Source of the DNA: Syntrophaceae bacterium UBA4054
Lineage (GTDB): Bacteria > Desulfobacterota > Syntrophia > Syntrophales > UBA4778
Reading direction: 5' to 3'
Length of the DNA: 64,000 bases
Assembly: GCA_002383495.1 (NCBI GenBank)
Contig: DFZO01000001.1
Span: 4,374 to 68,373 of the forward strand
The stretch's first letter is position 1. The number at the start of each line of letters is the position of its first letter. Both the position numbers and the translations under genes were made by a program. The notes beneath the pieces were generated by a model, which was given only the letters and a program-made list of their open reading frames with translations, searched no databases and was not told the origin of the DNA. Shown piece after piece: positions 1 through 61,942 of this stretch.

Positions 1-497
1 GTAAAAAGAAGAATGTCCCTCAGCTCTGCCTTGTTGTCATTTGTGACCGCCGTTTTGATGTAACACGGTATACCCAGCAGACGGCACATCCCGATGGCTT
101 CTATTACCCTCCGGAAACTGCCCTCTTTTCTGTTGCGGTCGTGTTTTTCTTCTATGGCGCTATCCAGGCTGAACCCCACCAGTTGAATGCGTTTGCGGAT
201 TTGCGGCGTTCGTATGAGGGGTAATATTCTATCTTTGAAGAGGTAACCATTCGTCAGGATTTCGAAATCGATGGTGTTCTCGGCAAGGCTCTGGAAGATA
301 TCTTCAAGCTGGGGGTGAAGCGAAAGCTCTCCCGACCCGGTGATGCCGGCATATCTGAATCCCAGACTCCGAAGCTGTCTCATGAGGTCGGAGAATATCT
401 CCTTTTCCATGTACACGGGCTTTGCGGACTTTGCCACAAGGCAGTGCCGGCAGGTAAAATTGCAGAAATTAACGATATCGATTGTCGGCGCTTTCAT
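1..497 (-). CDS. radical SAM enzyme, second paralog (partial; 3' end runs off the window start)
   Basis: My own minus-strand translation from the ATG at 495-497 gives MKAPTIDIVNFCNFTCRHCLVAK...GITGSGELSLHP...NRKEGSFRRVIEAIG. It has the CX3CX2C cluster motif and aligns block by block with the 469-1461 product. It overlaps that gene's 3' end by 29 nt. It is absent from the ORF track because it stays open to the window edge. Confidence 0.75.
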   Translation of the reverse strand, partial: MKAPTIDIVNFCNFTCRHCLVAKSAKPVYMEKEIFSDLMRQLRSLGFRYAGITGSGELSLHPQLEDIFQSLAENTIDFEILTNGYLFKDRILPLIRTPQIRKRIQLVGFSLDSAIEEKHDRNRKEGSFRRVIEAIGMCRLLGIPCYIKTAVTNDNKAELRDILLF

Positions 498-1461
498 CCG
501 CTTCCATCCACTTCATTTTTCCGAAAAGCCGGAAACACTTCGTACAGTTGACAGGCCAGTCTTTTTTGAGGTCCGAACGCATGACCTTATCCATGAACCA
601 TGCCAGCGTCCGGTAATGCCGGAGTATCCCTTCCTCGATGCCGATTTCCCGGATGTTCCCCAGATATTCTCTTCCGAATACATTCGGACTGTCTCCGTTC
701 GTCGGGTGGGAGAGATTACAGCAGAAGATGAAATTCCCCAGGTGGTCAAAGGAGATTCCATTAGCGGGATTGCAGAGGGGAACCCTGTAATCCGGATGTG
801 CAAATCCTTCGATACTGATGTTCAATAAAAATGACGGCATTATCCTGCCGGTTATTTGCCTGATGACTTCGGAATATTCTTCAGCCGTGGGCAAGAGATT
901 GCTCGATACAAGACGGGGCGTGGGCGTGAGCAGGACATACCCAAGGCTTCCTGCTCCTATCGATGCGCATAAATGGGCGACTTCCACGATGTCTTTCCTG
1001 TTTTCACTGTGAACGATGCTTTTGACGGACACAGGAATCTTCTCTTTCACACAGGCTTCGATTGAACTGATGACCCTGTCGAAACTTCCTTCTTTTCTTA
1101 TCATATCGTGGGAAGCCGATGTCGCGCCATCAAGGCTGAAACAGACCCCGTCGAGATGTCTTCTCACTTTAGAATCAAAGAGGGGAAGAATCTTATCTTC
1201 AAACAGAAAACCGTTGCTGACCAGGCTGAATCGAACCCCATAATCGACCAGAAGATCACAGACACGGTTCAACTCGGGGTGAAGAGCGGGTTCGCCGCCC
1301 GTAAGACACACATTCATCATGCCTACGGAAGACATTTCCCTGAGCACTAAATCGAGGAGATCGGGAGACATATGCGCCCTGGGCGCCACTTTGTCCCTGA
1401 GGCAGTGGATGCAATCGAAATTACAATGATTCGTGATGTCTATGGCAATGTTATATAGCAT
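469..1461 (-). CDS. radical SAM enzyme with C-terminal Cys-rich (SPASM/twitch-like) extension, peptide-maturase type
   Basis: 330 aa. The N-terminus has NHCNFDCIHC (CX3CX2C) and a GGEP SAM-binding motif. The C-terminal part has CNPANGISFDHLGNFIFCCN and CTKC, suggesting an auxiliary-cluster domain. It sits next to a PqqD-family gene. Confidence 0.85.
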   Translation of the reverse strand: MLYNIAIDITNHCNFDCIHCLRDKVAPRAHMSPDLLDLVLREMSSVGMMNVCLTGGEPALHPELNRVCDLLVDYGVRFSLVSNGFLFEDKILPLFDSKVRRHLDGVCFSLDGATSASHDMIRKEGSFDRVISSIEACVKEKIPVSVKSIVHSENRKDIVEVAHLCASIGAGSLGYVLLTPTPRLVSSNLLPTAEEYSEVIRQITGRIMPSFLLNISIEGFAHPDYRVPLCNPANGISFDHLGNFIFCCNLSHPTNGDSPNVFGREYLGNIREIGIEEGILRHYRTLAWFMDKVMRSDLKKDWPVNCTKCFRLFGKMKWMEADESADNRYR

Positions 1462-1504
1462 ATCATGAATAAAACGTTGAAAGGCAAGGACCGCGGAACG
1501 GGTT

Positions 1505-1520
1505 TCCGGTCACCACCGGA
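1505..1520 (-). promoter_or_regulatory. short GC-rich intercistronic hairpin between the 96-aa gene and the radical SAM gene
   Basis: The minus strand reads UCCGGU-GGUG-ACCGGA, a 6-bp stem with a 4-nt loop, inside the 71-nt spacer 1462-1532. The position resembles attenuator hairpins that follow precursor genes in RiPP operons. No U-tract follows. Confidence 0.3.
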
Positions 1521-1532
1521 TTTCGGTATGAT

Positions 1533-1823
1533 TTATAGTTTTTGTGCCAGTTTCGTGAAGACATTCTGCAATGCATAGTTGACCCTCGTAAAATTGGTCT
1601 GCAGGGCAACATTGGATTCTGTGACTTGTTGCAGCACCGCGTAACTGCTTTCGGCAATGACCTGCGCGTTGGCCACATAGGTATCTATGGCAGCAACGGT
1701 TGTATTGGTCACCGGAGTATTGGAAACTGCAAGGACATACTGGGTTTTGGTCACCCATGCCCTGACAGTCAGAATCTGGGACTCATCCCTTATATCGGGT
1801 CTTATGTATTTTTTCTTTTCCAT
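1533..1823 (-). CDS. hypothetical 96-aa protein, Cys-free and T/V/N/A/Q-rich; candidate substrate of the adjacent rSAM enzymes
   Basis: The ORF overlaps the PqqD gene's 3' end by 22 nt, which suggests translational coupling, and ends 71 nt before the rSAM gene. The sequence looks like a real protein (MEKKKYIRPDIRDE...NAQVIAESSYAVLQQVTESNVALQTNF...). The other minus frames give R/C/H-rich off-frame-looking products. Confidence 0.45.
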   Translation of the reverse strand: MEKKKYIRPDIRDESQILTVRAWVTKTQYVLAVSNTPVTNTTVAAIDTYVANAQVIAESSYAVLQQVTESNVALQTNFTRVNYALQNVFTKLAQKL

Positions 1824-2062
1824 GAGGGTGCCTTTTTCTCAAGTCTATCCATGAAATCCAGGATGTCTTTTTCCAACTCCTCTTCCCCAACGTCGTATTG
1901 CTCAAGCAATGCCGATTTTATTTCCTCTACCGTCTTGCCGTCGTTGACCATCTTGGCAATAAGGAGAGCTGTCTCATTGAGAAAATAGCTTGTGCTCCGC
2001 TCGACATCAATCATCATGCCTTCGCCATCGACTTCTGCCAGAATGATCTCGTCTTTCATCAT
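1802..2062 (-). CDS. PqqD-family protein (RiPP-recognition-element type peptide chaperone)
   Basis: 86 aa, with LNETALLIAKMVNDGKTVEEIKSALLEQYDV..EELEKDILDFMDRLEKK, which matches the PqqD winged-helix pattern. AAAGAGG lies 8 nt upstream of the ATG. It is the first gene of the rSAM operon. Confidence 0.75.
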   Translation of the reverse strand: MMKDEIILAEVDGEGMMIDVERSTSYFLNETALLIAKMVNDGKTVEEIKSALLEQYDVGEEELEKDILDFMDRLEKKAPSWKRKNT

Positions 2063-2206
2063 CGTTCGGAACCTCTTTCGTTAATATAGACTATATGTTG
2101 CTATTTTGCAACTGAAGTCTGATCAATGAAGATGTCCCTGTTTTGCGATCACCATACTTATTCTGATTGCATGTGAACTCTGAGGCCACGAACTCCCGAG
2201 AGGTGC

Positions 2207-2246
2207 GGGCGAGAGGAAAGGAATTTGAAGAATTTTAACAATACCC
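2207..2246 (+). repeat. 40-nt direct repeat, left copy (gggcgagaggaaaggaatttgaagaattttaacaataccc)
   Basis: Identical to 6986-7024 except for one extra A (39 of 40 positions). The two copies bracket the whole Cys-rich/repeat-domain cassette. Confidence 0.85.
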
Positions 2247-2366
2247 GGATACAACTGCCGCCAACTTCTCGCTGATACCAATCCTTACGGCCTCCCCACT
2301 ACTAAAATGACAGAATTTTTGAATCGGGTCCGACATTTTATTCCGTTTACTATACCTATTATCTAT

Positions 2367-2401
2367 CCGCATTAATTAATTGTATTTCAAGCATTGTTTT
2401 T
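2367..2401 (+). promoter_or_regulatory. conserved 35-nt AT-rich motif with palindromic ATTAATTAA core, copy A
   Basis: CCGCATTAATTAATTGTATTTCAAGCATTGTTTTT matches 15360-15394 at 30 of 35 positions by my count. It lies in the long intergenic region upstream of the Cys-rich array. Confidence 0.4.
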
Positions 2402-2421
2402 TTGTCCTGCAGATATGACTC

Positions 2422-2467
2422 TTGGCAGGCATAACGGACAGGGCAAAATCTTCCGTTTTGCCTGCCA
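2422..2467 (+). other. extended imperfect stem-loop
   Basis: TTGGCAGGC (2422-2430) pairs with GCCTGCCAA (2459-2467), and AACGGA (2433-2438) pairs with TCCGTT (2452-2457). That gives 9 + 6 bp with a 2x2 internal loop. No U-tract follows. Confidence 0.35.
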
Positions 2468-2515
2468 ATATCAGCCTGATCACTATGATCATAATAAATA
2501 CCCTATCAAAGGAGG

Positions 2516-2629
2516 GCCCTCATCGTGGGGAACAAGACCATAAGGCCGGGCAACACGGTCCGGGTGGATTTCGACGAAAAGGGGTACGCCTGCATTGCCC
2601 ATTTTGTCCAGAAGATCGAGAAGGGATAG
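2516..2629 (+). pseudogene. 3'-terminal remnant of a repeat-domain (D-family) gene
   Basis: My own translation ALIVGNKTIRPGNTVRVDFDEKGYACIAHFVQKIEKG* aligns with the C-terminus of the 6115-6825 product (VFVGNKKIIKGDTVRVGFDEKKGAYVAHTVLKIEKR*). There is no start codon, and an in-frame stop lies just upstream. Confidence 0.6.
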
Positions 2630-2694
2630 ATATTGTCAGAGGTCCATGAAAACAAAACAGGAGGTATCACAAAGACAGGAAAGGAGGAATAGCC

Positions 2695-3009
2695 ATGAAA
2701 CGTTTTATCATTGGGATCATCATCATTACATTGTGTCTGAGTCTCGGTCCCCTTGCGGGAGTCGGGTCGGCGGGATGGCCGGACGCAAATTCGGCATCGG
2801 AGGGCTGTTCGGTCAAAAAGTTTTCCTGTTGTAAGGCACAAAAACATATCGGGACGATGTCGGTCAAGATGTGCTGGAATGTGCGTAATTCTGCCTGTGC
2901 ACCCTGCAAGAGCCGGCATGAGCTTGACAGGGAATGCAACGAGAAATTCAAGAATTGTGGAAACAGATGCCGTCTGACTGTCAAATGCGGAACTTTCGAG
3001 CAGTGGTAA
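2695..3009 (+). CDS. small secreted cysteine-rich protein, paralog P1 (most divergent)
   Basis: 104 aa with AAGGAGG upstream. MKRFIIGIIIITLCLSLGPLAGVGSAG looks like a signal peptide. The mature part has 10 Cys on the family scaffold (..MCWNV....CAPC.........CNEK...C...C). Confidence 0.75.
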   Translation: MKRFIIGIIIITLCLSLGPLAGVGSAGWPDANSASEGCSVKKFSCCKAQKHIGTMSVKMCWNVRNSACAPCKSRHELDRECNEKFKNCGNRCRLTVKCGTFEQW

Positions 3010-3276
3010 TTGGCCCGTCCTGAAGAATGACCATTTCATGGTTCTTTTCACGGCATCTGTTCTCTGAAAACTGATGCCGGCGACAGGGTAAAGTGTTTCT
3101 CCGCGGCAAGCGGCATCACATCTGCAATGAGACCGTCAAATAGGGGCGGCAGCGATAGAACAAGATGCCTGCGGGAAGCTCAAGAAGGGCATTCCGGCTT
3201 ATGAAGGAAATAAAGTTGTTTCAATAAACATGAAAGAATCGTTGGCAACCAAATCAACAAAAAGGAGGACAGTACC

Positions 3277-3624
3277 ATGAAGAAAGGTGTTTTGATTCTG
3301 GGGGTGCTCGTCATTATGATTTTTGCTTCCTTTGCTGTTAACATAGGGATAGCCCGGGCAGATTGTGGTGACGAGAAGGTGTATTGCAAGATAGAAGGGG
3401 GCACGGAAGTAGGTACCGTCAAGGTTGGCAAGTGCTATGACTGGAAACATGCTAAATGTAAAGTGTGTCATGGCAACGCATATTTTGCCAAACAGTGCAA
3501 TAAAAAAATAATAGCGTGTGTCGGGAAATGCTGGGGTTGCATAATGGGGAAATGTTGGTGGACGGACTGGAAAAAATGCGAAGCTTGCTATGATCAAAAC
3601 GGAAACAAGCACGATCCGAAGTAG
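3277..3624 (+). CDS. small secreted cysteine-rich protein, paralog P2
   Basis: 115 aa with AAGGAGG upstream. The signal peptide ends in ARA. The mature part has 12 Cys, VGTVKVGKCYDW, CKVCHG (CxxCH) and CNKK. Confidence 0.85.
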   Translation: MKKGVLILGVLVIMIFASFAVNIGIARADCGDEKVYCKIEGGTEVGTVKVGKCYDWKHAKCKVCHGNAYFAKQCNKKIIACVGKCWGCIMGKCWWTDWKKCEACYDQNGNKHDPK

Positions 3625-3639
3625 ACTATCTCTACGGCT

Positions 3640-3784
3640 ATTGTCTCGAGGCGCAATCAATACCTCGGAGGCCATCGTCGTCGGGAACAAGATCATCAAA
3701 GCCGGCAATACGGTGCGTGTCGGCTATGACAGGGAAGACAACACCTTTATGGCACATATGGTGCTGAAGATCGAAAAGAGATAA
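3640..3784 (+). pseudogene. 3'-terminal remnant of a repeat-domain (D-family) gene
   Basis: The track ORF 3590-3784 ends in ..NTSEAIVVGNKIIKAGNTVRVGYDREDNTFMAHMVLKIEKR*, homologous to the last ~42 aa of the 6115-6825 product. Its 5' part overlaps the P2 gene and has no domain homology. The left boundary is approximate. Confidence 0.6.
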
Positions 3785-3800
3785 GAAAGGAGAAAATACC

Positions 3801-4082
3801 ATGAAACGTTTTATGATCGGAACCATCGCAGTGATTGCGCTTTGTCTGTTCATCGTATCCTTTTCTGGAGTCTCGTCGGCGGGATGTTCGGACTCAAAGT
3901 GCCCATGCTATAAAAACAATACAACCATTTCTGTCGGAAAGGTCACGGTCGGGAATTGCTGGAAGTGGTCGCCGCCGGGTTGTGATCTTTGCCACGGCTA
4001 CAAAGGGATTGTAAAGAAGTGCAACAAGAAGTACAAGGAGTGTAACAATGAATGCTATTCATCTGAAAGTGATTGCTCCTGA
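3801..4082 (+). CDS. small secreted cysteine-rich protein, paralog P3
   Basis: 93 aa with AAAGGAG upstream. The signal peptide ends in SSA. The mature part has 10 Cys, VGKVTVGNCWKW, CDLCHG (CxxCH) and CNKK. Confidence 0.85.
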   Translation: MKRFMIGTIAVIALCLFIVSFSGVSSAGCSDSKCPCYKNNTTISVGKVTVGNCWKWSPPGCDLCHGYKGIVKKCNKKYKECNNECYSSESDCS

Positions 4083-4113
4083 TAAAATATGAATACTCAA
4101 TGAATAACACATC

Positions 4114-4122
4114 ATTAATTAA
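4114..4122. promoter_or_regulatory. third copy of the palindromic ATTAATTAA core
   Basis: tcATTAATTAAtg lies 34 nt upstream of the P4 start. The other two copies I found in the window sit in the conserved motifs at 2371-2379 and 15364-15372. Confidence 0.3.
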
Positions 4123-4155
4123 TGCGCCCAAAGGCGGTTCGCATCGGAGGTGAAA

Positions 4156-4485
4156 ATGAAAACTTTGGCAATTGCATTTGTTATGTTTGTGGTGATATTT
4201 TTTTCAGGGTTTGTCGGATTCAGCTATGCCGGCTGCCCAGATTGGCATGGATTCTGTTATGCAGACGCCGGAAATGGGAGGCTGTTAGGAAAGGTCACGG
4301 TCGGCAAGTGCTGGAAGTGGAATGGGAATGGCTGTGATTTTTGTCGCGGGAACAAGGAGCCGGTCCGGCATTGTAATGGCAAATATGTACTGTGTTTGTT
4401 CAACTGCTGGGCATGTGACGATAAAAAGGGTAACGATAGAACCTGCTGGGACAAGCATGGTAACAGGCATGATTCAAATTGGTGA
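4156..4485 (+). CDS. small secreted cysteine-rich protein, paralog P4
   Basis: The track ORF starts at GTG 4150. The ATG at 4156 is better placed, 5 nt after GGAGG. The signal peptide ends in SYA. The mature part has 10 Cys, GKVTVGKCWKW, CDFCRG (no His) and CNGK. Confidence 0.8.
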   Translation: MKTLAIAFVMFVVIFFSGFVGFSYAGCPDWHGFCYADAGNGRLLGKVTVGKCWKWNGNGCDFCRGNKEPVRHCNGKYVLCLFNCWACDDKKGNDRTCWDKHGNRHDSNW

Positions 4486-4570
4486 GCGTTAGCCCTCGCT
4501 GGCATGTCGTGCTGCAGCATGACATCGGGTGTGAATCGCCCGATGAGGATTGCGCTAAAATGAATTTTAG

Positions 4571-4705
4571 CACGTGCCCCTGTACCTGGATCTGCTGCCC
4601 GATCAAGCGGAGGCGCGGGAAATGCTGACAAAGCACGGCTTTGAAATCGTGAGATCCACGGACGAGGCGGCGTTTTACCTCGTCGTGGCAAAAACGATAA
4701 AATAG
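4571..4705 (+). pseudogene. possible C-terminal fragment of an unrelated gene (class-I methyltransferase-like tail)
   Basis: My own translation after an in-frame stop gives HVPLYLDLLPDQAEAREMLTKHGFEIVRSTDEAAFYLVVAKTIK*. This resembles the ..GFE.V......YLVVA.K C-termini of SAM-dependent methyltransferases. It has no start codon or RBS. The family assignment is from memory only. Confidence 0.3.
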
Positions 4706-4762
4706 GATTTGATGGAACGTCCTCGATTATCAGGTATCAGGCAAGAAAGGAGGTCATATACC

Positions 4763-5137
4763 ATGAAGAAAGGTGTTTTGATTTTGGGGGTGCTCATCAT
4801 TATGATTTTTGCTTCATTTGCTGTTAACATAGGGATAGCCCGGGCGGGCTGTAGTGACAGAAAGGTGTCTTGCAAGATAGAAGGGCGCATTGACGTAGGC
4901 ACCGTCTATGTTGGCACGTGTTATGACTGGAGAACAACTCGTTGCAATTTTTGTCATGGCAACGCATATACTGTCAAACAGTGCAATAAAAAAATAGTGG
5001 CGTGTGCGTATTTTGGGAACTGCTGGGGTTGCTGGAAAGAAGCGAGGGGGGGGAATTGGACTGAAACCTGCTATCCATCGGGTAATGGCAAGTTAACACC
5101 GAGGGGACATGTTTCGATGTATAATTTGGAGGATTGA
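4763..5137 (+). CDS. small secreted cysteine-rich protein, paralog P5 (chimeric 3' end)
   Basis: The track ORF 4709-5137 has its likely true start at the ATG at 4763, after AAAGGAGG. MKKGVLILGVLIIMIFASFAVNIGIARA is nearly identical to the P2/P6 signal peptides. The mature part has 10 Cys and CNFCHG (CxxCH). The last ~19 codons are encoded by the repeat element at 5080-5163. Confidence 0.8.
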   Translation: MKKGVLILGVLIIMIFASFAVNIGIARAGCSDRKVSCKIEGRIDVGTVYVGTCYDWRTTRCNFCHGNAYTVKQCNKKIVACAYFGNCWGCWKEARGGNWTETCYPSGNGKLTPRGHVSMYNLED

Positions 5138-5163
5138 CCACAAATAAAACGAAAAAAGGAGGA
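5080..5163 (+). repeat. ~80-nt repeated upstream module R, copy 1 (contains TGTATAAT and the AAGGAGG RBS)
   Basis: gggtaatggcaagttaacaccgaggggacatgtttcgatgtataatttggaggattgaccacaaataaaac...aaggagg is near-identical to 5572-5650, with a few substitutions and indels. TATAAT at 5120-5125 is preceded directly by TG, so it could be an extended -10. Copy 1 overlaps the P5 3' end and precedes P6. Confidence 0.7.
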
Positions 5164-5170
5164 CAGTACC

Positions 5171-5515
5171 ATGAAGAAATGTGTTTTGATTTTGGGGGTG
5201 CTCGTCATTATGGTTTTTGCTTCCTTTGCTGTTAACATAGGAACAGCCCGGGCAAGCTGCAGTAACATAGAGGTGGATTGTAAGATAGAAGGGAGCATTA
5301 AAGTAGGCACCGTCTATGTTGGCGGGTGCTACGACTGGGCTAATAATGAGTGTAAAGTGTGTCATGGCAACGCATACCCTGCCAAACAGTGCAATAAAAA
5401 AATAGTGGCGTGTGCGTATTTCGGGAACTGTTTGGGTTGCTGGATGAGTGGGGATACAGATCCTTCTCATGAAGTTTGCTATGATATAAACGGAAACAAG
5501 CACGATCCGAAGTGA
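5171..5515 (+). CDS. small secreted cysteine-rich protein, paralog P6
   Basis: 114 aa with AAGGAGG upstream. The signal peptide ends in ARA. The mature part has 10 Cys, VGTVYVGGCYDW, CKVCHG (CxxCH) and CNKK. Its C-terminal NGNKHDPK is shared with P2. Confidence 0.85.
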   Translation: MKKCVLILGVLVIMVFASFAVNIGTARASCSNIEVDCKIEGSIKVGTVYVGGCYDWANNECKVCHGNAYPAKQCNKKIVACAYFGNCLGCWMSGDTDPSHEVCYDINGNKHDPK

Positions 5516-5571
5516 ACCATCCCTCCGGTTATTGTCTCGAGGCGCAATGAACAACTCAACAACAGCCCCTA

Positions 5572-5650
5572 GGGTAATGGCAGTTAACACCGAGTGGACA
5601 TGTTTCGATGTATAATTTGGAGGATTGACCACCAATAAAACAAAAGGAGG
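5572..5650 (+). repeat. repeated upstream module R, copy 2
   Basis: Near-identical to 5080-5163, with TATAAT at 5611-5616. This copy is entirely intergenic and precedes the 5659 gene. Confidence 0.7.
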
Positions 5651-5658
5651 CACTGCCC

Positions 5659-6099
5659 ATGAAAAAAATCTTTATTCTTTGTTTGGCATTATCTTTCCTT
5701 GCCGTTTTCTCGACTGGCGATCTCATCGCCGCTGAGAAGGCAAAACCCGTGAAGCAGAAAGCATCAGCCAAAAGATCCGTAAAGGTGCCTGTCCCGAAGG
5801 TGATTGAGACATTCCTGGGTGTCGTTGCCGGGATAGACACGGCGGAAAAGACGCTCGCCGTCCGGGCGCGCTACGCCGCGGAATACTATTTCGATTCGGG
5901 CTTCATGATGGAGAAGGAATTTGTGCTCGATGAAGACGACATCACATTCGACATCTCGGAAGCCAAATTCGCGGGATGCGGTCCCCAAAGTTGCGCAAAG
6001 GCGGAGGATTTCAAAACGGGGGATCATGTCCGGGTAGCCTATGAAAGGAAGGGCGACAAATATATCGCCAATATCGTGCTGAGAATCGGGAAAAGATAG
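5659..6099 (+). CDS. secreted protein with one copy of a ~95-aa repeat domain (D1)
   Basis: 146 aa with AAGGAGG upstream. The signal peptide is MKKIFILCLALSFLAVFSTGDLIAA, followed by a Lys/Ala-rich linker. The domain runs VIETFLGVVAGIDTAEKTLAVRA...ITFDISEAKF...GDHVRVAYERKGDKYIANIVLRIGKR. Confidence 0.8.
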   Translation: MKKIFILCLALSFLAVFSTGDLIAAEKAKPVKQKASAKRSVKVPVPKVIETFLGVVAGIDTAEKTLAVRARYAAEYYFDSGFMMEKEFVLDEDDITFDISEAKFAGCGPQSCAKAEDFKTGDHVRVAYERKGDKYIANIVLRIGKR

Positions 6100-6114
6100 G
6101 AAAGGAGGAAAATC

Positions 6115-6825
6115 ATGAAGAAACGATTCATCATTTACTGTGCGGCAGTATTGACCATTGTTTTTTTCATCACGGGGGCCATGGCCCAGGATAAGGCCAA
6201 AGCGGCGACGAAGAAGGCAACAAAACAAAAGAAAGTAAAGGTGGAAGCCCCTAAAGTGATCGAGACCTTTCTGGGAACGGTCGCCGGTGTGGACGCAGCC
6301 GGAAAGAAACTGACCGTTCGCGCATTGTACGGAACGGAATACCACATCAGCGGAGGCAACATCGCCACGAGGGAGTTCATCGCCGACGAAGTGGATCTAA
6401 CCTTTGACATTGCCAAGGCGAAGCTTGTGGGATTTTCGGGAATCGGGGACATCCACGCAGGCAGCCATGTCCGGGTGGGTTATGACTGCAAAGGTGAAGC
6501 CCTGATCGCCCACACGGTTCTCCACATCCCGCCGAAGCGGGACAGATCGGTCACAAGGACTTTTCTGGGCACGGTTACCGGAGTGGATGAAGCGAAAAAG
6601 GCTTTGACTGTGAGGGCAATCCTGGAGGGGGAATTTTACGTAAACGAGGCAAATACGGACCTCAAGGAGTATGTCCTTGACGAGAAAGACATCACCTTTG
6701 ACACCTCAAAGGCCGTCTTCGTGGGGAATAAGAAGATTATCAAGGGAGACACTGTCCGCGTGGGTTTTGACGAAAAGAAGGGCGCCTATGTCGCCCATAC
6801 GGTGCTGAAAATCGAAAAGAGATAG
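6115..6825 (+). CDS. secreted protein with two tandem copies of the same ~95-aa domain (D2)
   Basis: 236 aa with AAGGAGG upstream, a signal peptide and a K/A-rich linker. It has two repeats, each with TFLGTV.GVD.A.K.LTVRA ... TFD..KA..VG ... G..VRVG.D.K....AHTVL.I. Confidence 0.8.
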   Translation: MKKRFIIYCAAVLTIVFFITGAMAQDKAKAATKKATKQKKVKVEAPKVIETFLGTVAGVDAAGKKLTVRALYGTEYHISGGNIATREFIADEVDLTFDIAKAKLVGFSGIGDIHAGSHVRVGYDCKGEALIAHTVLHIPPKRDRSVTRTFLGTVTGVDEAKKALTVRAILEGEFYVNEANTDLKEYVLDEKDITFDTSKAVFVGNKKIIKGDTVRVGFDEKKGAYVAHTVLKIEKR

Positions 6826-6985
6826 GTCATGTCAAAAATGCATGAACGACGAGAAATAAAACCATCATCTCTCACAGAGCACATAGAGAATGACCATAAG
6901 GCCATGCGGCTTTTCTGGAATGAAAATAATATTCAATCCGGCAAAACATAGTTTCCCTTTGCGGCCTCGAAAGACCGAAGAAAAT

Positions 6986-7024
6986 GGGCGAGAGGAAAGG
7001 AATTTGAAGAATTTTACAATACCC
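6986..7024 (+). repeat. direct repeat, right copy (39 nt)
   Basis: Same sequence as 2207-2246 minus one A. It lies 118-156 nt upstream of the TolC-like gene. Confidence 0.85.
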
Positions 7025-7057
7025 AGAAATAAGAAAGGCGGACATCCCTGACGCATC

Positions 7058-7086
7058 TTGAAACCTCATGAGAAACCTGCTATGAA
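7058..7086 (+). promoter_or_regulatory. candidate sigma70-type promoter for the exporter operon
   Basis: TTGAAA (7058-7063), a 17-nt spacer, then TATGAA (7081-7086), about 55 nt upstream of the 7142 start. This is a pattern match only. Confidence 0.3.
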
Positions 7087-7141
7087 ATCACAGACACAGG
7101 CAAGGGCAAGGAAAGACATTCAAGAATCGTGAAAGGACCCG

Positions 7142-8716
7142 ATGGTTTACTTGTGGTTGAAATCCTGCTGGATGAACCGCCTGACCCTGGCGGTAATGAT
7201 CATTGTCTTCCTCCAGGCATTTCCGGCCCTTGGTGAAGACAAAAAGATTTCCGGAGCGACACAGGACGCAAAAGTCAGGACCCTCACCCTGGCCGACTGC
7301 GTCATGCTCGCCCTGCAGAACAACGTGGCCATCCGCACGGCTTATCTGGACAGAATTTCCCAGAGGATGTTCCTCCGCGTCGCGGAGGACAAATTCATAC
7401 CGCAGCCGTCCCTCTCCTTCTCCACTACAACCACATCCAACTACAACACCGATAATACCCGGACGCAGGCTGCCGCACAGGACGCCAAGTTTGTGACCAC
7501 CCTGACGCTTCCTACTGGAGGCGCCGTTAATTTCACCTGGGACAATCCGGCGAACAAACCGGATGTGGGGCAGGATTACGGCTACAGTTCGGGCTGGAGC
7601 GTCACCTTCACGCAGCCGATCCTCAAGAATGCCGGAATCGATGCGGCCACCCAATCCGTCCGGCAGGCGCGAATCGCCGAGGAACAGGCCGTTCTTGATC
7701 TGAAAGACACCCTCACAAGCACGATCACGACGACCGTCACGAACTATCGGGCATACCTGTCGGCATTGCGCAGCTACGACATTCAGGTGAAGGGTCTCGA
7801 AACGGCGAGGCAGACCCTCGAAACGAACAAAGCGCTGATCGCAGCCGGAAGGATGGCCCAGACGGAAATTATCCAAACGGAGAACGATGTCGCCAACCAG
7901 GAGTTGAGCGTCATCACCGCCAGGAACAGTATTGACTCGTCTCTCCTGACACTGCTGCAGACGCTCGACCTGGACAGAAACACCCGGTTCCTGCCCGTTG
8001 AGGAGCCGGAGCAGAAGGTATCCCCTCCGTCATTGCAGGAGGCGATCGCCATAGCGATCAAGAACCGCTCGGACTACATCAAGGCGGTTCAGAACCTCGA
8101 TCTAGCAAACCTGGACATGGCCGTCAAGAAACGGGGTCTCCTCTGGGATCTTTCGCTGGTGACAGGCGCCGGCCGCACCGGCACGGATGACACCTACCGG
8201 GGGGCTTTCGGGGATCAGCCGCCCGGGAAAAGCAACTGGAACGTGGGGCTCACGCTCAACATTCCTTTGCGGGACCTGGCAACGGAAAGCACCTATGTGT
8301 CGGCAAAGGTCGCATGGGAAAAAGCCCGGATCAACCTGAAAAAACTGACGGCAGACATCGGGATCGACGTGCAGAACAAGCTCCGCGACATCGATGTCAA
8401 TTACAGGAGCTATATCCTGTCAAAGAAAGGACGGGAACTCGCGGAAAAGAAACTCGCGATCGAACAGGAAAAACTGAAACTCGGCCGGACGACCAATTTC
8501 CAACTGGTCAGTTTCCAGAACGACGTGAGAAACCAGCGAACGACGGAGTTGCAGGCCCTGATCACCTATCTCAATTCCTTGACGGCCCTGGACCAATCGC
8601 TGGGCATTATCCTCAACCGCTGGAACATAGCCGTCAAACGCGAAGACGTGGACGTTAAACTGCCCGAGACGGAGAAAAAAGCGGCTAATCAGAAGGTGTC
8701 GGCAAAGGCAGAGTAA
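7142..8716 (+). CDS. TolC-family outer-membrane efflux protein
   Basis: 524 aa. It has an N-terminal signal-like segment (an alternative start is MNRL at 7172). The pattern LTLADCVMLALQNNVAIR and the two-fold repeated coiled-coil/beta architecture are typical of the OEP family. It is the first gene of a four-gene exporter operon. Confidence 0.85.
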   Translation: MVYLWLKSCWMNRLTLAVMIIVFLQAFPALGEDKKISGATQDAKVRTLTLADCVMLALQNNVAIRTAYLDRISQRMFLRVAEDKFIPQPSLSFSTTTTSNYNTDNTRTQAAAQDAKFVTTLTLPTGGAVNFTWDNPANKPDVGQDYGYSSGWSVTFTQPILKNAGIDAATQSVRQARIAEEQAVLDLKDTLTSTITTTVTNYRAYLSALRSYDIQVKGLETARQTLETNKALIAAGRMAQTEIIQTENDVANQELSVITARNSIDSSLLTLLQTLDLDRNTRFLPVEEPEQKVSPPSLQEAIAIAIKNRSDYIKAVQNLDLANLDMAVKKRGLLWDLSLVTGAGRTGTDDTYRGAFGDQPPGKSNWNVGLTLNIPLRDLATESTYVSAKVAWEKARINLKKLTADIGIDVQNKLRDIDVNYRSYILSKKGRELAEKKLAIEQEKLKLGRTTNFQLVSFQNDVRNQRTTELQALITYLNSLTALDQSLGIILNRWNIAVKREDVDVKLPETEKKAANQKVSAKAE

Positions 8717-8721
8717 AAATC

Positions 8722-10458
8722 ATGGGACAGGACGAAATCATCTACAGGAACATTCTTGAAAATATGTCCGACGGGGTCATGACGATTGGCCTCGACGGCC
8801 ACATCCTCACTTTCAATGAAGCAGCGGAACGGATTCTGAATCTCAAGAGAACAGAGGTCATCAACCGCCTCTTCGGTGAGGTTTTCCTGACCAGGGAAGG
8901 CAACGACGACTTCAATCAGGCCATTCTGAGCGCCGTCTACGACGCCTCCATGTCACAGAACAGCACCGTCAGCTACCACACGGAAGAAAAGACGCTCGCC
9001 CTTTCCGTCACCACATCCTTCCTCCGATCCGCACCGGAGGGAGAGAAGAGGAGCGCGGCCGTCATCGTCGTTTTCAGCGACCGTACAGAGATAGAACAGC
9101 TTCGTCAAAAAGAAAGCGAGCTGAACGAAGAAATCAAGGCCCGGCACCAGGAATTGCAGAAATCCTACCTTGAACTGGAGGATTCAAATGCCCTTCTCCA
9201 GACCGCTCTCAAGAAGGTGCAGATGATCCGCGTCACGGCAACCGCTTTGATCATCCTCCTTTTCGTCGCCATCGGGTTTGTAACCTGGACAAGGACCCAC
9301 CATGGAAAATCAGACGGCATGCCGCTCAAGAGAACAAAAGACGGCGCCCCCATGACCTATACCGTCGTGCCCAGAAATCTCACGGACAGCATTTCTCTCA
9401 AGGGAAACCTGAGGCCGATAAAAGTGGTAAACGTGACGAGCCCCTTCACGGGAACGGTGAAGGAAAAGTTGTTCCAATACGGCGAAACGGTCGCGAAAGG
9501 TCAGATCCTCATCCGCATGGACGTCACGGAGGCGGAATCGAAGTACCGGGACGCTAAAGCGGCCTTCATCAAGGCCGGCGAAAAATATCGGGAAGTCATG
9601 AACTGGCAGAAGAGCGACGAGATGGCCAAGGAGACACGATCCCTGGACAAGACCAAGAAAACATTCCAGGAGACGGAGATCCTTTTCAAGAAAGGCATCG
9701 TTTCTGCCAATGAATACGATGATGCAAAAACCAACTATGAAAATGAACTTCAGACCTTCAGGACCACCCAGGCAAAAGGAGAGGGAGAAAACCTGATCCT
9801 GGCAAAGCTGGAATATGACAACGCGAAAGCAAAACTCAACGAACTTCAGTCTCAGCTGAGCGGGGCGGTTGTCCGCGCCCCCGTTTCCGGCACGGTTATC
9901 CGCTCCGGACTGGCGGACAAGGACAAAAAAGAAAAGGTCATCGAGAGAGGCGCCTCTTTCAACCAGGGTGAGATGCTGGTATCCATCGGCGACACGAGCG
10001 GGCTCTCCGTGACGGCTTCCGTGGACGAGATGGAGGTCACGAAAATCAAGAAAGGTCAGGAGGTCGTGATTACCGGGGAGGCTTATCCCGGCATCTCGCT
10101 CAAGGGGACGGTAAACTATATCTCCTCACAGGCCAATGTCAAGGCAAGCGACGGGGACGGGCCAAAAGTCGCGACGTTTGACATCGGCATCGCCGTGGCG
10201 TCTCTCTCTCCGGAGGCGGCGAACATGGTGCGTCTCGGCATGTCCTCGAATCTGTCCATTCTCATCCTGAACAAGCCAGATGCTATTCTGGTTCCAATCA
10301 ACGCCGTCCGGACGGATGGGGATAACCGCGTCGTGACGGTGATCGATAAGACAAACCGAGAGAGAAAAACGGTCAAGGTGGAAACGGGGATCACCACCCT
10401 GGACTCCGTGGAGATTATCAAGGGCCTGAACCGCGGGGACGAGGTTGTCCTGAATTGA
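8722..10458 (+). CDS. membrane-fusion (HlyD/MacA-type periplasmic adaptor) protein with N-terminal cytoplasmic PAS domain
   Basis: 578 aa. Residues ~5-120 match the PAS pattern (IYRNILENMSDGVMTIGLDGHILTFNEAAERILNLKRTEV). A coiled-coil stretch follows, then a TM segment VTATALIILLFVAIGFVTW. The rest is adaptor-like, with motifs GTVKEKLFQYGETVAKGQILIRMD and VRAPVSGTVI. Confidence 0.8.
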   Translation: MGQDEIIYRNILENMSDGVMTIGLDGHILTFNEAAERILNLKRTEVINRLFGEVFLTREGNDDFNQAILSAVYDASMSQNSTVSYHTEEKTLALSVTTSFLRSAPEGEKRSAAVIVVFSDRTEIEQLRQKESELNEEIKARHQELQKSYLELEDSNALLQTALKKVQMIRVTATALIILLFVAIGFVTWTRTHHGKSDGMPLKRTKDGAPMTYTVVPRNLTDSISLKGNLRPIKVVNVTSPFTGTVKEKLFQYGETVAKGQILIRMDVTEAESKYRDAKAAFIKAGEKYREVMNWQKSDEMAKETRSLDKTKKTFQETEILFKKGIVSANEYDDAKTNYENELQTFRTTQAKGEGENLILAKLEYDNAKAKLNELQSQLSGAVVRAPVSGTVIRSGLADKDKKEKVIERGASFNQGEMLVSIGDTSGLSVTASVDEMEVTKIKKGQEVVITGEAYPGISLKGTVNYISSQANVKASDGDGPKVATFDIGIAVASLSPEAANMVRLGMSSNLSILILNKPDAILVPINAVRTDGDNRVVTVIDKTNRERKTVKVETGITTLDSVEIIKGLNRGDEVVLN

Positions 10459-10467
10459 CGGAATGGA

Positions 10468-11148
10468 ATGGATGTCATGCCCATGCTCAAAGCCGTGGAT
10501 ATCCACAAAACCTATAACGTTGGACCCACGAAGATCGACGTTCTGAAGGGGATTTCCCTGGAAGTGGAGCGTGGAGAACTGCTTGCCGTCGTCGGGGCTT
10601 CCGGCAGCGGCAAGTCTACCCTGATGCACATGCTGGGACTCCTCGAACAGCCCACATCGGGGGACTATTACATCGAAGGGGAAAAGATCAGTTACGACAA
10701 CGATCAGGAGCTCTCAAGCCTCAGAAACCGGAAGATCGGATTCGTTTTCCAGCAGTATTACCTGCTCCCGCGGCTCACCGCCCTGGATAACGTGGGCATC
10801 CCTCTCGTTTATCGCGGGATGAAGGACACCGAGATCAAGGAGCGCTCCATGGCCCTCCTCAAAAAACTGGAAATGACAGACCGGGCCGGACACAAACCCG
10901 ACGAAATGTCCGGGGGCCAGCAACAGCGCGTGGCCATCGCCCGCGCCCTGGTGGGGAACCCCTCTCTCATCCTTGCCGACGAGCCGACGGGAGCTCTCGA
11001 TACGCATACGGGTCAGGAAATCATGAACATCTTCCGGAATCTGAACGAGGAGGAAGGAATCACCATTATTGTGATCACCCACGACCCGAAGATCGCCGCG
11101 CAGTGCAAACGCAGGGAAGAGCTGTCCGACGGGCTGATCGTGAAATGA
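10468..11148 (+). CDS. ABC transporter ATP-binding protein, MacB/LolD/FtsE-like
   Basis: 226 aa with Walker [10 protein letters not shown], signature MSGGQQQR and Walker [13 protein letters not shown]. Confidence 0.9.
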
Positions 11149-11158
11149 TGAAAGGTTC

Positions 11159-12331
11159 ATGATACTGAAGACAAACATAACGGAGGCCTTCCGGAGCCTT
11201 GCCAGCACGAAGCAGCGGACAATCCTTGCGCTGATCGGAATCATCATTGGGATCGGCTCCGTCATCGGCATGGTTTCCATAGGCGCCATCGTCGAGAACG
11301 AAGCGCTCAAGCAATTCCGGGACATGGGCGTCGACATCGCCATGGTGCGAAAAACAGGTTCCGACAAGTCCGCGGAAATGACCCTGAAGGATATTCTCGA
11401 TTTGAAGAAACATGTCCCCGCAGTGCTGGAGGTCGCTCCTTTTCTAACCGCGGAAGGCGATTACGGCTCCGGCAGTAAAAAACTGGATCTGGTACAGATG
11501 GGCGTCACGGAGTCCTTTTTCAACCTCAACAAAATCAGGGCAAGCGAAGGCCGGCTCATCACGGACCTCGACGAGTACAGGTACTTCTGTGTCGTCGGCA
11601 GGGAAACAAGTAATTACCTGAAAAGTCACGGTGCGACGGACATCATCGGCCGTCAGATCCCCCTCGGCAACCGGATTTTCACGATTGTGGGAATCCTCGA
11701 GACCGTCCCGGAGGGCGGAATGAGGCCCTATGGAATCAACAGTTCGGCCATGATGCACATCACGACGGCCGGAAGATCGTTTCAGGATCAGACGCTGAAC
11801 AGTTTTATGGCCCGCCTTGACGGGAAGACATCAACCGCCGAGAGCAAAGCGGCGATCGAGGGTTACTTCACAAAAACAGCGAGGGGACTTCGGGTCTCTG
11901 TCAATACGGCGGAAGAGTTGATCGCGGGCATGAAAAAACAGATGCAGCTTTTTTCGATCCTCCTGGGCGCCATCGGCAGCATCGCCCTGATCGTAGGCGG
12001 CATCGGCGTGATGAACGTGATGCTCATTTCCGTGACCGAGCGGCGCAGAGAAATTGGCCTCCGCCGGGCCTTGGGGGCACAGCAAAAGGATATTCAAACG
12101 CAGTTCATCATCGAATCGGTGACGCTCTGCCTGTTCGGCGGCATCATCGGCATATTTCTCGGCATCGTCGTGTCGTTTGTTTTTGCGCTGATCTCCAAGT
12201 GGGAATTCCTCATATCCTACGGGTCCATCGCCCTCGGCTTCGGCGTGGCCGCCGCCGTGGGAATTTTTTTCGGCTATTATCCGGCCCGAACAGCCTCAAG
12301 ACTCGACCCCATCAGGGCACTGCGGTCTTAA
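11159..12331 (+). CDS. ABC transporter permease, FtsX/MacB type with periplasmic domain
   Basis: 390 aa. It has an N-terminal TM, a large extracytoplasmic domain and a C-terminal FtsX-like 3-TM bundle (RRREIGLRRALGAQQKDI...). Confidence 0.85.
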   Translation: MILKTNITEAFRSLASTKQRTILALIGIIIGIGSVIGMVSIGAIVENEALKQFRDMGVDIAMVRKTGSDKSAEMTLKDILDLKKHVPAVLEVAPFLTAEGDYGSGSKKLDLVQMGVTESFFNLNKIRASEGRLITDLDEYRYFCVVGRETSNYLKSHGATDIIGRQIPLGNRIFTIVGILETVPEGGMRPYGINSSAMMHITTAGRSFQDQTLNSFMARLDGKTSTAESKAAIEGYFTKTARGLRVSVNTAEELIAGMKKQMQLFSILLGAIGSIALIVGGIGVMNVMLISVTERRREIGLRRALGAQQKDIQTQFIIESVTLCLFGGIIGIFLGIVVSFVFALISKWEFLISYGSIALGFGVAAAVGIFFGYYPARTASRLDPIRALRS

Positions 12332-15308: not shown

Positions 15309-15359
15309 TAATGTGATCCTGCATGACCCATTGTTTCACTTATTCCACTTGGTTTTCTT

Positions 15360-15394
15360 CCGTATTAATTAAAAGTTTTTCAAGTATTGTTTTT
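15360..15394 (+). promoter_or_regulatory. conserved 35-nt AT-rich motif with ATTAATTAA core, copy B
   Basis: CCGTATTAATTAAAAGTTTTTCAAGTATTGTTTTT matches 2367-2401 at 30 of 35 positions. It lies ~170 nt upstream of the first pilus subunit gene. Confidence 0.4.
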
Positions 15395-15563
15395 CCATTC
15401 CGTAAATGTCATCAAGTGATTCAGGATGCTGGTCTTCCCCAGGCAGCCGGGTCACACCTGCCACGCATGTGACTTCAGATTAAGCTCAATCCGTTATTGT
15501 TCCGCAAGTGCAACCGGATCAACTCCTGCGGTCGCTTTGCCGGGTATAAGAACAGGGACTTCC

Positions 15564-61865: not shown

Positions 61866-61942
61866 TGGCAGGCCAGGAGGGATTCGAACCCCCAGCATCC
61901 GGATTTGGAGTCCGGCGCTCTATCCGTTAGAGCTACTGGCCT
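61866..61942 (-). tRNA. tRNA-Trp (anticodon CCA)
   Basis: Hand-folded from AGGCCAGTAGCTC...CCGGACTCCAAATCCGG...GGTTCGAATCC...CTGGCCTGCCA. It has the cloverleaf and an encoded CCA. Confidence 0.9.

Follow-up and report, generated by a model that had tools for sequence, protein, structure and literature searches.

Locus architecture

We analysed a 64,000-nt stretch of contig DFZO01000001.1 from Syntrophaceae bacterium UBA4054, which we call the window. Our subject is a 40-nt sequence that occurs twice in it, at the two ends of an array of small genes (the P and D genes) and beside an exporter operon headed by a TolC-like gene. We take the 40-mer to be the core of a non-coding element, here called E, which is specific to this lineage and whose place is upstream of a P gene; its left and right copies are named E-L and E-R. 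Relatives (numbered with an L) are TolC homologues and their loci, the closest of which are labelled Syntrophaceae or Syntrophales. The closest with full context is L022 (CAYXFF010000004.1), with 90% amino acid (aa) identity in TolC and 87% nucleotide identity over 6.7 kb. The features of the window are, in order:

469–2062, minus strand: end of a divergent radical SAM (rSAM)/PqqD cluster, with the rSAM gene at 469–1461, a gene for a 96-aa putative precursor at 1533–1823 and PqqD at 1802–2062
2178–2193, plus strand: box A of E-L, CTCTGAGGCCACGAAC, separated from the core by 13 nt
2207–2246, plus strand: E-L, left copy of the 40-nt core, GGGCGAGAGGAAAGGAATTTGAAGAATTTTAACAATACCC, at the head of the P/D array
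2422–2438 and 2452–2468: inverted repeat with 17-nt arms (16/17), TTGGCAGGCATAACGGA and TCCGTTTTGCCTGCCAA
2515–2650 and 3670–3805: D-gene remnants, before P1 and before P3
2695–5515, plus strand: P1–P6, a set of six paralogues encoding Cys-rich proteins that bear signal peptides
5659–6099, plus strand: D1, secreted, one copy of a ~110-aa domain
6115–6825, plus strand: D2, secreted, two copies of the ~110-aa domain
6826–7048, plus strand: right intergenic segment, collinear with L022 8975–9176, the 200 nt directly upstream of its P gene
6957–6984, plus strand: box A and spacer of E-R, CTTTGCGGCCTCGAAAGACCGAAGAAAA, with 23/30 columns identical to L022 9079–9108
6986–7024, plus strand: E-R, right copy of the core, shortened to 39 nt by a 1-nt deletion; 117 nt separate it from the TolC-like ATG at 7142
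7142–12331, plus strand: exporter operon, with a TolC-like outer membrane protein, a PAS–HlyD adaptor, a MacB-type ATPase and a MacB-type permease

Both copies of the repeat are intergenic, and E-L lies 145 nt from the start codon of the divergent PqqD gene. Along the plus strand the array reads D remnant, P1, P2, D remnant, P3–P6, D1, D2; its paralogue blocks are 65–93% identical, with P2, P5 and P6 at 78–85%. A first-pass annotation of this DNA had described D remnants, P1–P6, D1 and D2 as the content of a bracketed accessory cassette, read mainly as an insertion. The content is as it described; the insertion is not, the array being native to the exporter clade, as set out below. Its estimate of ~120 nt between the right copy and the exporter operon is likewise borne out by the measured distance.

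The repeat pair is genuine and occurs at two sites in the window

E-L and E-R lie on the same strand and agree at 39/40 bases, the single difference being one lost A in E-R (TTTTAACAAT to TTTTACAAT). L022 and the left copy both read TTAACAA at this point, so the deletion is the derived state and belongs to E-R. The longest exact run common to the two is 31 nt (2207–2237, identical to 6986–7016). Within the locus the pair matches with an E-value of ~1e-13 (blastn-short), and 100 shuffles of the window returned no match to the 40-mer.

Independent assemblies reproduce the pair. The JGI assembly L002 contains both copies, as do all assemblies that span the region (the window, L001 and L002). Three Logan assemblies built at k=31 from different runs (L004, L005 and L006) have base 2 of the right copy as their first position, a break that the 31-nt exact repeat accounts for. 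The presence of both copies in the independent L002, together with this pattern of breaks, shows that the repeat is real and no artefact of a single assembly. The direct repeat reported by the first-pass annotation is thus confirmed as a real, non-random pair. A strain contig 99% identical to the window (L078) begins 16 nt beyond the right copy and adds no information here.

Further copies, which the earlier description had proposed to look for, did not appear: an 18-nt core allowing up to three mismatches finds E-L and E-R and nothing else in the 64 kb. A profile of E (nhmmer) run over the window and ~80 loci recovers only E-L, E-R, one site in L022 and one in L013. A 22-nt core has no exact match in 185,579 representative genomes or in a metagenome contig set; the source species is evidently in neither collection, so these scans show only that the 40-mer is not a widespread repeat. 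The left copy with its flanks has no match among plasmids (blastn), and among phages only chance-level matches to unrelated coding genes (E 0.03–0.3).

Three other candidates were set aside. A third, degenerate copy at 7108–7141 (p=0.015 among ~39 tests) is best put down to chance or to the native ribosome-binding region of TolC. An origin of the 40-mer in P or D coding sequence finds no significant similarity, and translated E is unlike the D C-termini. A small open reading frame (ORF) with a TTG start in the core (15–16 codons) is shifted in frame between the copies by the indel, and L022 has no start codon there.

The right copy corresponds to the leader of a P gene in the closest relative

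L022 has the same gene order as the window: rSAM cluster and PqqD, an intergenic region, P, a second intergenic region and TolC. It has a single P gene and no internal repeat. It also has a single homologue of the 40-mer, at 9118–9158, directly upstream of that P gene, with 25 nt between the end of the E core and the P start codon.

The window resembles L022 far beyond the core on the right-hand side. Positions 6957–7041, which hold E-R and both of its flanks, align to L022 9079–9176 (Smith–Waterman score 26, reached in 0/200 shuffles), a stretch whose end adjoins the P gene's ribosome-binding site and ATG. Further upstream, 6841–6890 aligns to L022 8995–9045 (p=0.007), and by direct alignment the collinearity extends from 6826, the base after the D2 stop codon, to 7048. 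Outside the core, 23/30 positions of the left flank and 12/15 of the right flank of E-R are identical to L022. At 7025–7048 the window keeps a remnant resembling a ribosome-binding site, 19/24 identical to the corresponding region of P3, with no P gene behind it now. These alignments show the right copy, with ~160 nt upstream of it and the remnant downstream, to be the orthologue of the L022 P-gene leader.

The left copy is a different case. In the core the two copies are about equally distant from L022 (31/41 identical aligned columns for E-L, 30/41 for E-R), and beyond it the likeness of the left copy to L022 is confined to the 16-nt box A. That of E-L agrees at 13/16 positions with L022 9079–9094 and at 12/16 with the right-hand box. 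The comparison shows E-L as a paralogue heading the expanded array, with only box A and the core in common. L022 8749–8781 was considered as a diverged positional orthologue of E-L (24/32) and rejected as not significant (p=0.14–0.23). In E, box A (CTnTGnGGCCnCGAA) is followed by a 13-nt spacer and then by the 40-nt core. The identity of the two repeats as copies of E is, on these comparisons, well supported and in our view quite likely.

Where the array begins and ends relative to L022 can also be placed. On the left, collinearity with the L022 intergenic DNA continues to ~2440 (2354–2402 against L022 8903–8951, p=0.037). The breakpoints between array present and array absent therefore fall at ~2440 and 6826, which is ~200 nt in from E-L and ~160 nt in from E-R.

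Between E and TolC the window has lost what its relatives keep. A ~60-nt block lies ~100–140 nt upstream of TolC in L013, L014 and L022 and is absent from 7025–7141; there is no P gene downstream of E-R, and homology to relatives resumes ~18 nt before the TolC ATG. With the P gene and the upstream block gone, E-R now stands 117 nt from the exporter operon. The 75 nt at 7049–7123 have no traced origin in the comparison with relatives. In the relatives the block (L013 829–900; L014 358–440; L022 9576–9660) reads ...GAATGACACTTGCATTCTC..GCATATG..TTAATCT...; it is not clearly a sigma-54 promoter, GG-N10-GC being present in L014 and L022 with AG in L013. As its alternative to insertion, the first-pass annotation had suggested that the exporter's promoter region was duplicated when the cassette was acquired or expanded. 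This comes close to our own reading and needs one correction: what was duplicated is the leader of a P gene. It is not DNA from upstream of the exporter, where relatives have this other conserved block, missing from the window.

No 40-mer lies upstream of TolC in L013, L014 or L015. L013, whose TolC is 85% identical, carries an inverted relic of E, TTTGAGGAATTTTAAAATACC (107–185, minus strand), with 21/22 bases identical to the right half of the core; the relic is placed ~830 nt before TolC and points toward the 3' end of an unrelated gene. The 970 nt before the L013 TolC contain no P gene.

The P/D array is a native partner of the exporter

P and D genes travel with this exporter. In every case in which TolC is at least 72% identical, P and/or D genes adjoin the exporter operon; where identity is below 50%, none do. 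They lie beside the exporter in L011, L022, L024, L025 and L028, and L007 has a rearranged form, with a D gene and a P-domain fusion protein. Copy number ranges from 1 in L022 through 10 in L028 to 14 in L011, with eight genes and two remnants in the window; L024 and L025 have at least two each, as their contigs end. This distribution shows the array to be a native, copy-number-variable partner of the exporter clade and not an inserted island, its size changing by tandem duplication and loss. By gene linkage, the P and D proteins are probably cargo of the exporter.

In L011, L028, L024, L025 and L022 alike, the head of the array carries no repeat of the TolC-upstream region. The first-pass annotation had itself named relatives with the cassette and without the repeats as evidence against an insertion boundary, and these five are such relatives. 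Since the P/D genes stand beside the same exporter clade where the repeat does not occur, the cassette is not an insertion.

The core was probably copied recently within the lineage

Identity between the two copies of E is uneven. The cores agree at 39/40 positions, box A at 12/16 and the spacer at 6/13. In register, the flanks of the core agree at 16/29 positions on the left (P ~0.001) and 12/25 on the right, 46–55% overall. The unevenness is significant (Fisher p=5.5e-5, computed on a hand count of 17/29 for the left flank, where the script gives 16/29). Between species the core is 73–76% identical and the neighbouring orthologous intergenic DNA 69–80%. As the core is no better conserved than its neighbours, long-term purifying selection does not explain the 97.5% identity of the paralogues. 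More probably, the core was copied recently in this lineage during remodelling of the array, whether through short-tract gene conversion between E paralogues that were older and had diverged or through a short duplication.

E may serve as promoter or leader of P genes

What E does is a separate matter. It could be the promoter or 5' leader of P genes, in which case its two copies would place the putative cargo array and the exporter under the same control. The geometry in L022, with the core 25 nt before the P start and a strong ribosome-binding site between them, is that of a core promoter with a short 5' untranslated region. Both copies in the window point toward downstream genes, and no terminator-like site was found on the plus strand between the copies and those genes. 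A -10-like hexamer is placed 4–5 nt from the core's 3' end (TACAAT in E-R, TAAAAT in L013, AACAAT in E-L, AACAAA in L022); read directly from the sequence, only the right copy has a good one. On this footing, a promoter or leader role with common control of array and exporter is plausible, though we hold it tentatively and at somewhat under even odds. Were it so, the locus would hold a small natural rewiring, in which an exporter came to lie behind the element that heads its putative cargo genes. For the overall reading, that E-L and E-R are paralogues of E made by recent copying and that E acts as a P-gene promoter or leader, we estimate a probability of roughly 0.6.

Several observations weigh against it. 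The candidate -10 hexamers have no convincing -35, and a scan with the sigma-70 consensus gives no match at threshold on E-L, E-R or the L022 homologue. The promoter-like spacing noted in the first pass (TTGAAG, then 17 nt later GATACA or AAATAA) is present in the copies and does not pass that scan. By direct reading the core has no sigma-54 GG-N10-GC, and a sigma-54 consensus scan returns 26 matches where 23 are expected, none near the repeats. Across species the core is conserved to the same degree as adjacent intergenic DNA, with no footprint of special constraint, and the inverted relic in L013 indicates that E can persist with no obvious gene downstream. In the left intergenic region the boxes run PqqD promoter, E-L, ATTAATTAA box, an order that a simple tandem duplication of the L022 order would not give. 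Finally, the comparison covers one full-context relative, and copies were counted within the 64-kb window.

A rival reading: neutral by-products of array remodelling

The main rival keeps the same history and denies the function: both copies would be functionless scars, a neutral by-product of the unequal recombination, deletions and gene conversion that a tandem array undergoes, and transcription of array and exporter would start elsewhere or read through. The conservation of the core at the level of its surroundings and the failure of the promoter scans speak for it. So does the want of RNA features, with no Rfam match at E<=1 near either copy and no significant or shared fold on either strand of either copy (z-scores -0.9 to +2.0). 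The bracket is unique to this lineage, being absent from L011, L028, L024, L025 and L022; L013 retains its relic with no gene behind it, and the region is full of other remnants. Against a neutral origin, the exporter has lost a block that its three nearest relatives keep and would need a new upstream signal unless transcription reads through, and L022 has E exactly where a core promoter and short 5' untranslated region would be. Box A, moreover, is 75–81% conserved among paralogues and orthologues, whereas the spacer between it and the core is near random. We regard the neutral account as rather unlikely, yet as the chief competitor of a promoter or leader role.

Unlikely readings: array deletion, dispersed repeats and site-specific insertion

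A 31-nt exact direct repeat with copies 4.8 kb apart is enough for low-frequency homologous deletion, given the minimal homology of RecA. The repeats could then be substrates for recurrent loss of the whole array, mediated by RecA or by slippage, that would vary the cargo genes in copy number or switch them on and off and leave one E in front of the exporter. Array copy number does vary widely among relatives. No deletion allele is seen, however: the window, L001 and L002 all have both copies, and the short-read k=31 contigs cannot show such an allele. Nor is L022 the product of recombination between E-L and E-R, since a P gene still follows its E and its breakpoints differ. We think it very unlikely that the repeats serve in this way. 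A narrower version, in which E-L and E-R act as a recombination switch that removes the P/D array in one step and so yields subpopulations with and without the secreted Cys-rich proteins, seems to us scarcely more probable. In practice the repeat breaks k=31 assemblies here, may hide structural variants and could mediate deletions.

Equally improbable is membership of the 40-mer in a dispersed family resembling repetitive extragenic palindromes (REP) or miniature inverted-repeat transposable elements (MITEs), two members of which would flank the array by chance. The borders of the high-identity core are sharp, and only 64 kb plus ~3 kb of the source genome was examined. Yet both the 18-mer with three mismatches and nhmmer find just two copies in that 64 kb, there are no terminal inverted repeats and no stable hairpin, no collection holds a match, and the L022 homologue is single and at the orthologous position. 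A transposon target-site duplication (TSD) or MITE was rejected on similar grounds, as these would give a TSD of 2–14 bp, terminal inverted repeats and many copies, in place of a 40-nt repeat with no abutting inverted repeats and two copies in 64 kb.

Least probable of all, and in our judgement hardly credible, is the first-pass proposal that the repeats are attL/attR-type sites of a non-autonomous 4.7-kb cassette inserted site-specifically. It explains the direct repeats at both ends and the lower GC content of the bracketed block (44–50%, against 52–58% for the exporter genes), and an excised or empty allele is compatible with the Logan contigs, which break at the repeat. Other marks of an island fail: a mobility gene, an empty site in relatives, foreign cargo, and a tRNA, tmRNA or other conserved target. 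As the first pass had stated, no integrase or transposase lies inside; no recombinase or transposase Pfam domain occurs in sense or antisense ORFs of 2063–7141 or in the flanking genes examined, and the nearest tRNA is at 61866, 55 kb away. The empty site sought in relatives, a single repeat beside the TolC-like gene, was not found, E in L022 being followed by a P gene and L013–L015 lacking the 40-mer upstream of TolC. In relatives, 1–14 P/D copies flank exporters of the same clade with no repeat, the 22-nt core is absent from the genome, metagenome, plasmid and phage collections, and the flanks of the two copies are weakly homologous, which att duplication does not predict. What decides the matter is L022. 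Had the pair arisen by att duplication, L022 should carry one copy lying between the outer flanks of the pair; its single E matches the right copy on both flanks, and the array-absent breakpoints lie at ~2440 and 6826 instead of at the repeats. The att proposal is thereby refuted, and neither mobile island nor att-bounded cassette is a suitable annotation for the locus.

Neighbouring genes and other sequence features

The P family combines a signal peptide with 8–10 Cys at invariant positions (window 2695–5515; L011 3450–9771; L022 9184–9470) and has no match among Pfam or NCBIfam models. The heme c attachment motif CxxCH occurs in P2, P3, P5 and P6 and in 8/10 L011 members; P1, P4 and the L022 P protein have CxxCK/R in its place, and heme binding by the family is uncertain. 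The D domain, of ~110 aa, ends in G..VRVGYD...Y.AH.VL.I.KR; it has neither a Pfam nor an NCBIfam family, nor any sequence match in PDB. Remnants of D C-termini supply the ribosome-binding sites of P1 and P3.

The HlyD/MacA-like adaptor of the exporter (window 8722–10458) bears an N-terminal PAS domain in every member examined (L007, L011, L013–L015 and L022). This fusion is unusual and suggests signal-dependent control of the pump.

On the other side of the array, homology to relatives ends at the PqqD start or ~50 nt beyond it. The divergent cluster there (PqqD, the 96-aa ORF, two rSAM genes, an S24 peptidase and NTP_transf_5; window 469–2062 and L001 1–4921) resembles a module for ribosomally synthesized and post-translationally modified peptides (RiPPs). 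The 96-aa ORF, duplicated in L022, is conserved at its N-terminus and variable at its C-terminus. Among relatives with 78–92% identical rSAM, the module occurs in at least five different genomic contexts; it is also seen in L016, L018, L079 and L081, and adjoins the exporter only in the window and L022. None of those four rSAM-cluster relatives contains E, and their neighbours differ.

Two further features lie between E-L and the array. The ATTAATTAA box, ~75 nt around CCG(C/T)ATTAATTAA at 2343–2420, is collinear with L022 8903–8951 and 70–75% identical to DNA just upstream of the SCPU/PapD/usher fimbrial operon (window 15337–15410; L022 18086–18165); its core recurs, inverted, between P3 and P4 (4098–4126). 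It may be a shared operator for operons of secreted proteins. The inverted repeat at 2422–2468 sits exactly where collinearity with the L022 intergenic region IG1 stops, and L022 has a counterpart for its left arm only. Its position and form suggest a snap-back or template-switch junction, or an operator.

Comparison with known systems

Three known arrangements resemble parts of this locus. Like an integron cassette array, it is a string of small ORFs on one strand, variable in number. It has no IntI and no attC-type imperfect inverted repeats between genes, however; its repeat occurs only twice, and its genes are paralogues made by tandem duplication where an integron holds unrelated cassettes. 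With the attL and attR of integrase-mobilised islands it shares direct repeats of tens of bases that bracket a few kilobases of lower-GC, accessory-looking genes. An integrase, a tRNA or other conserved target and an empty site are all missing here, the cargo is of native character, and the one copy in L022 agrees on both flanks with a single member of the pair.

The third is MacAB–TolC, which in E. coli exports the Cys-rich periplasmic peptide enterotoxin STII (Yamanaka et al. 2008, as cited in PMC7403778). The system shares with ours a MacB-type tripartite exporter, here adjoining genes for small, disulfide-rich proteins with Sec signals, and this likeness would give a rationale for regulating cargo and pump together. 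Here export is suggested by gene linkage only, the adaptor has its N-terminal PAS domain, and the P and D proteins match no known family.

Closest to the history proposed for the pair is concerted evolution in tandem arrays. As in such arrays, the paralogues agree at 39/40 positions where orthologues agree at ~75%, the homogenised tract is short and has diverged homologous flanks, and the array varies in copy number through duplication and loss of units among close relatives. It departs from them in that no conversion event has been observed, that a 40-nt tract between flanks of 46–55% identity is a poor substrate for RecA, and that short copy-paste duplication is not distinguishable from conversion here. 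The event is in either case of an ordinary kind: the lineage-specific duplication of an intergenic element in a tandem array under remodelling.

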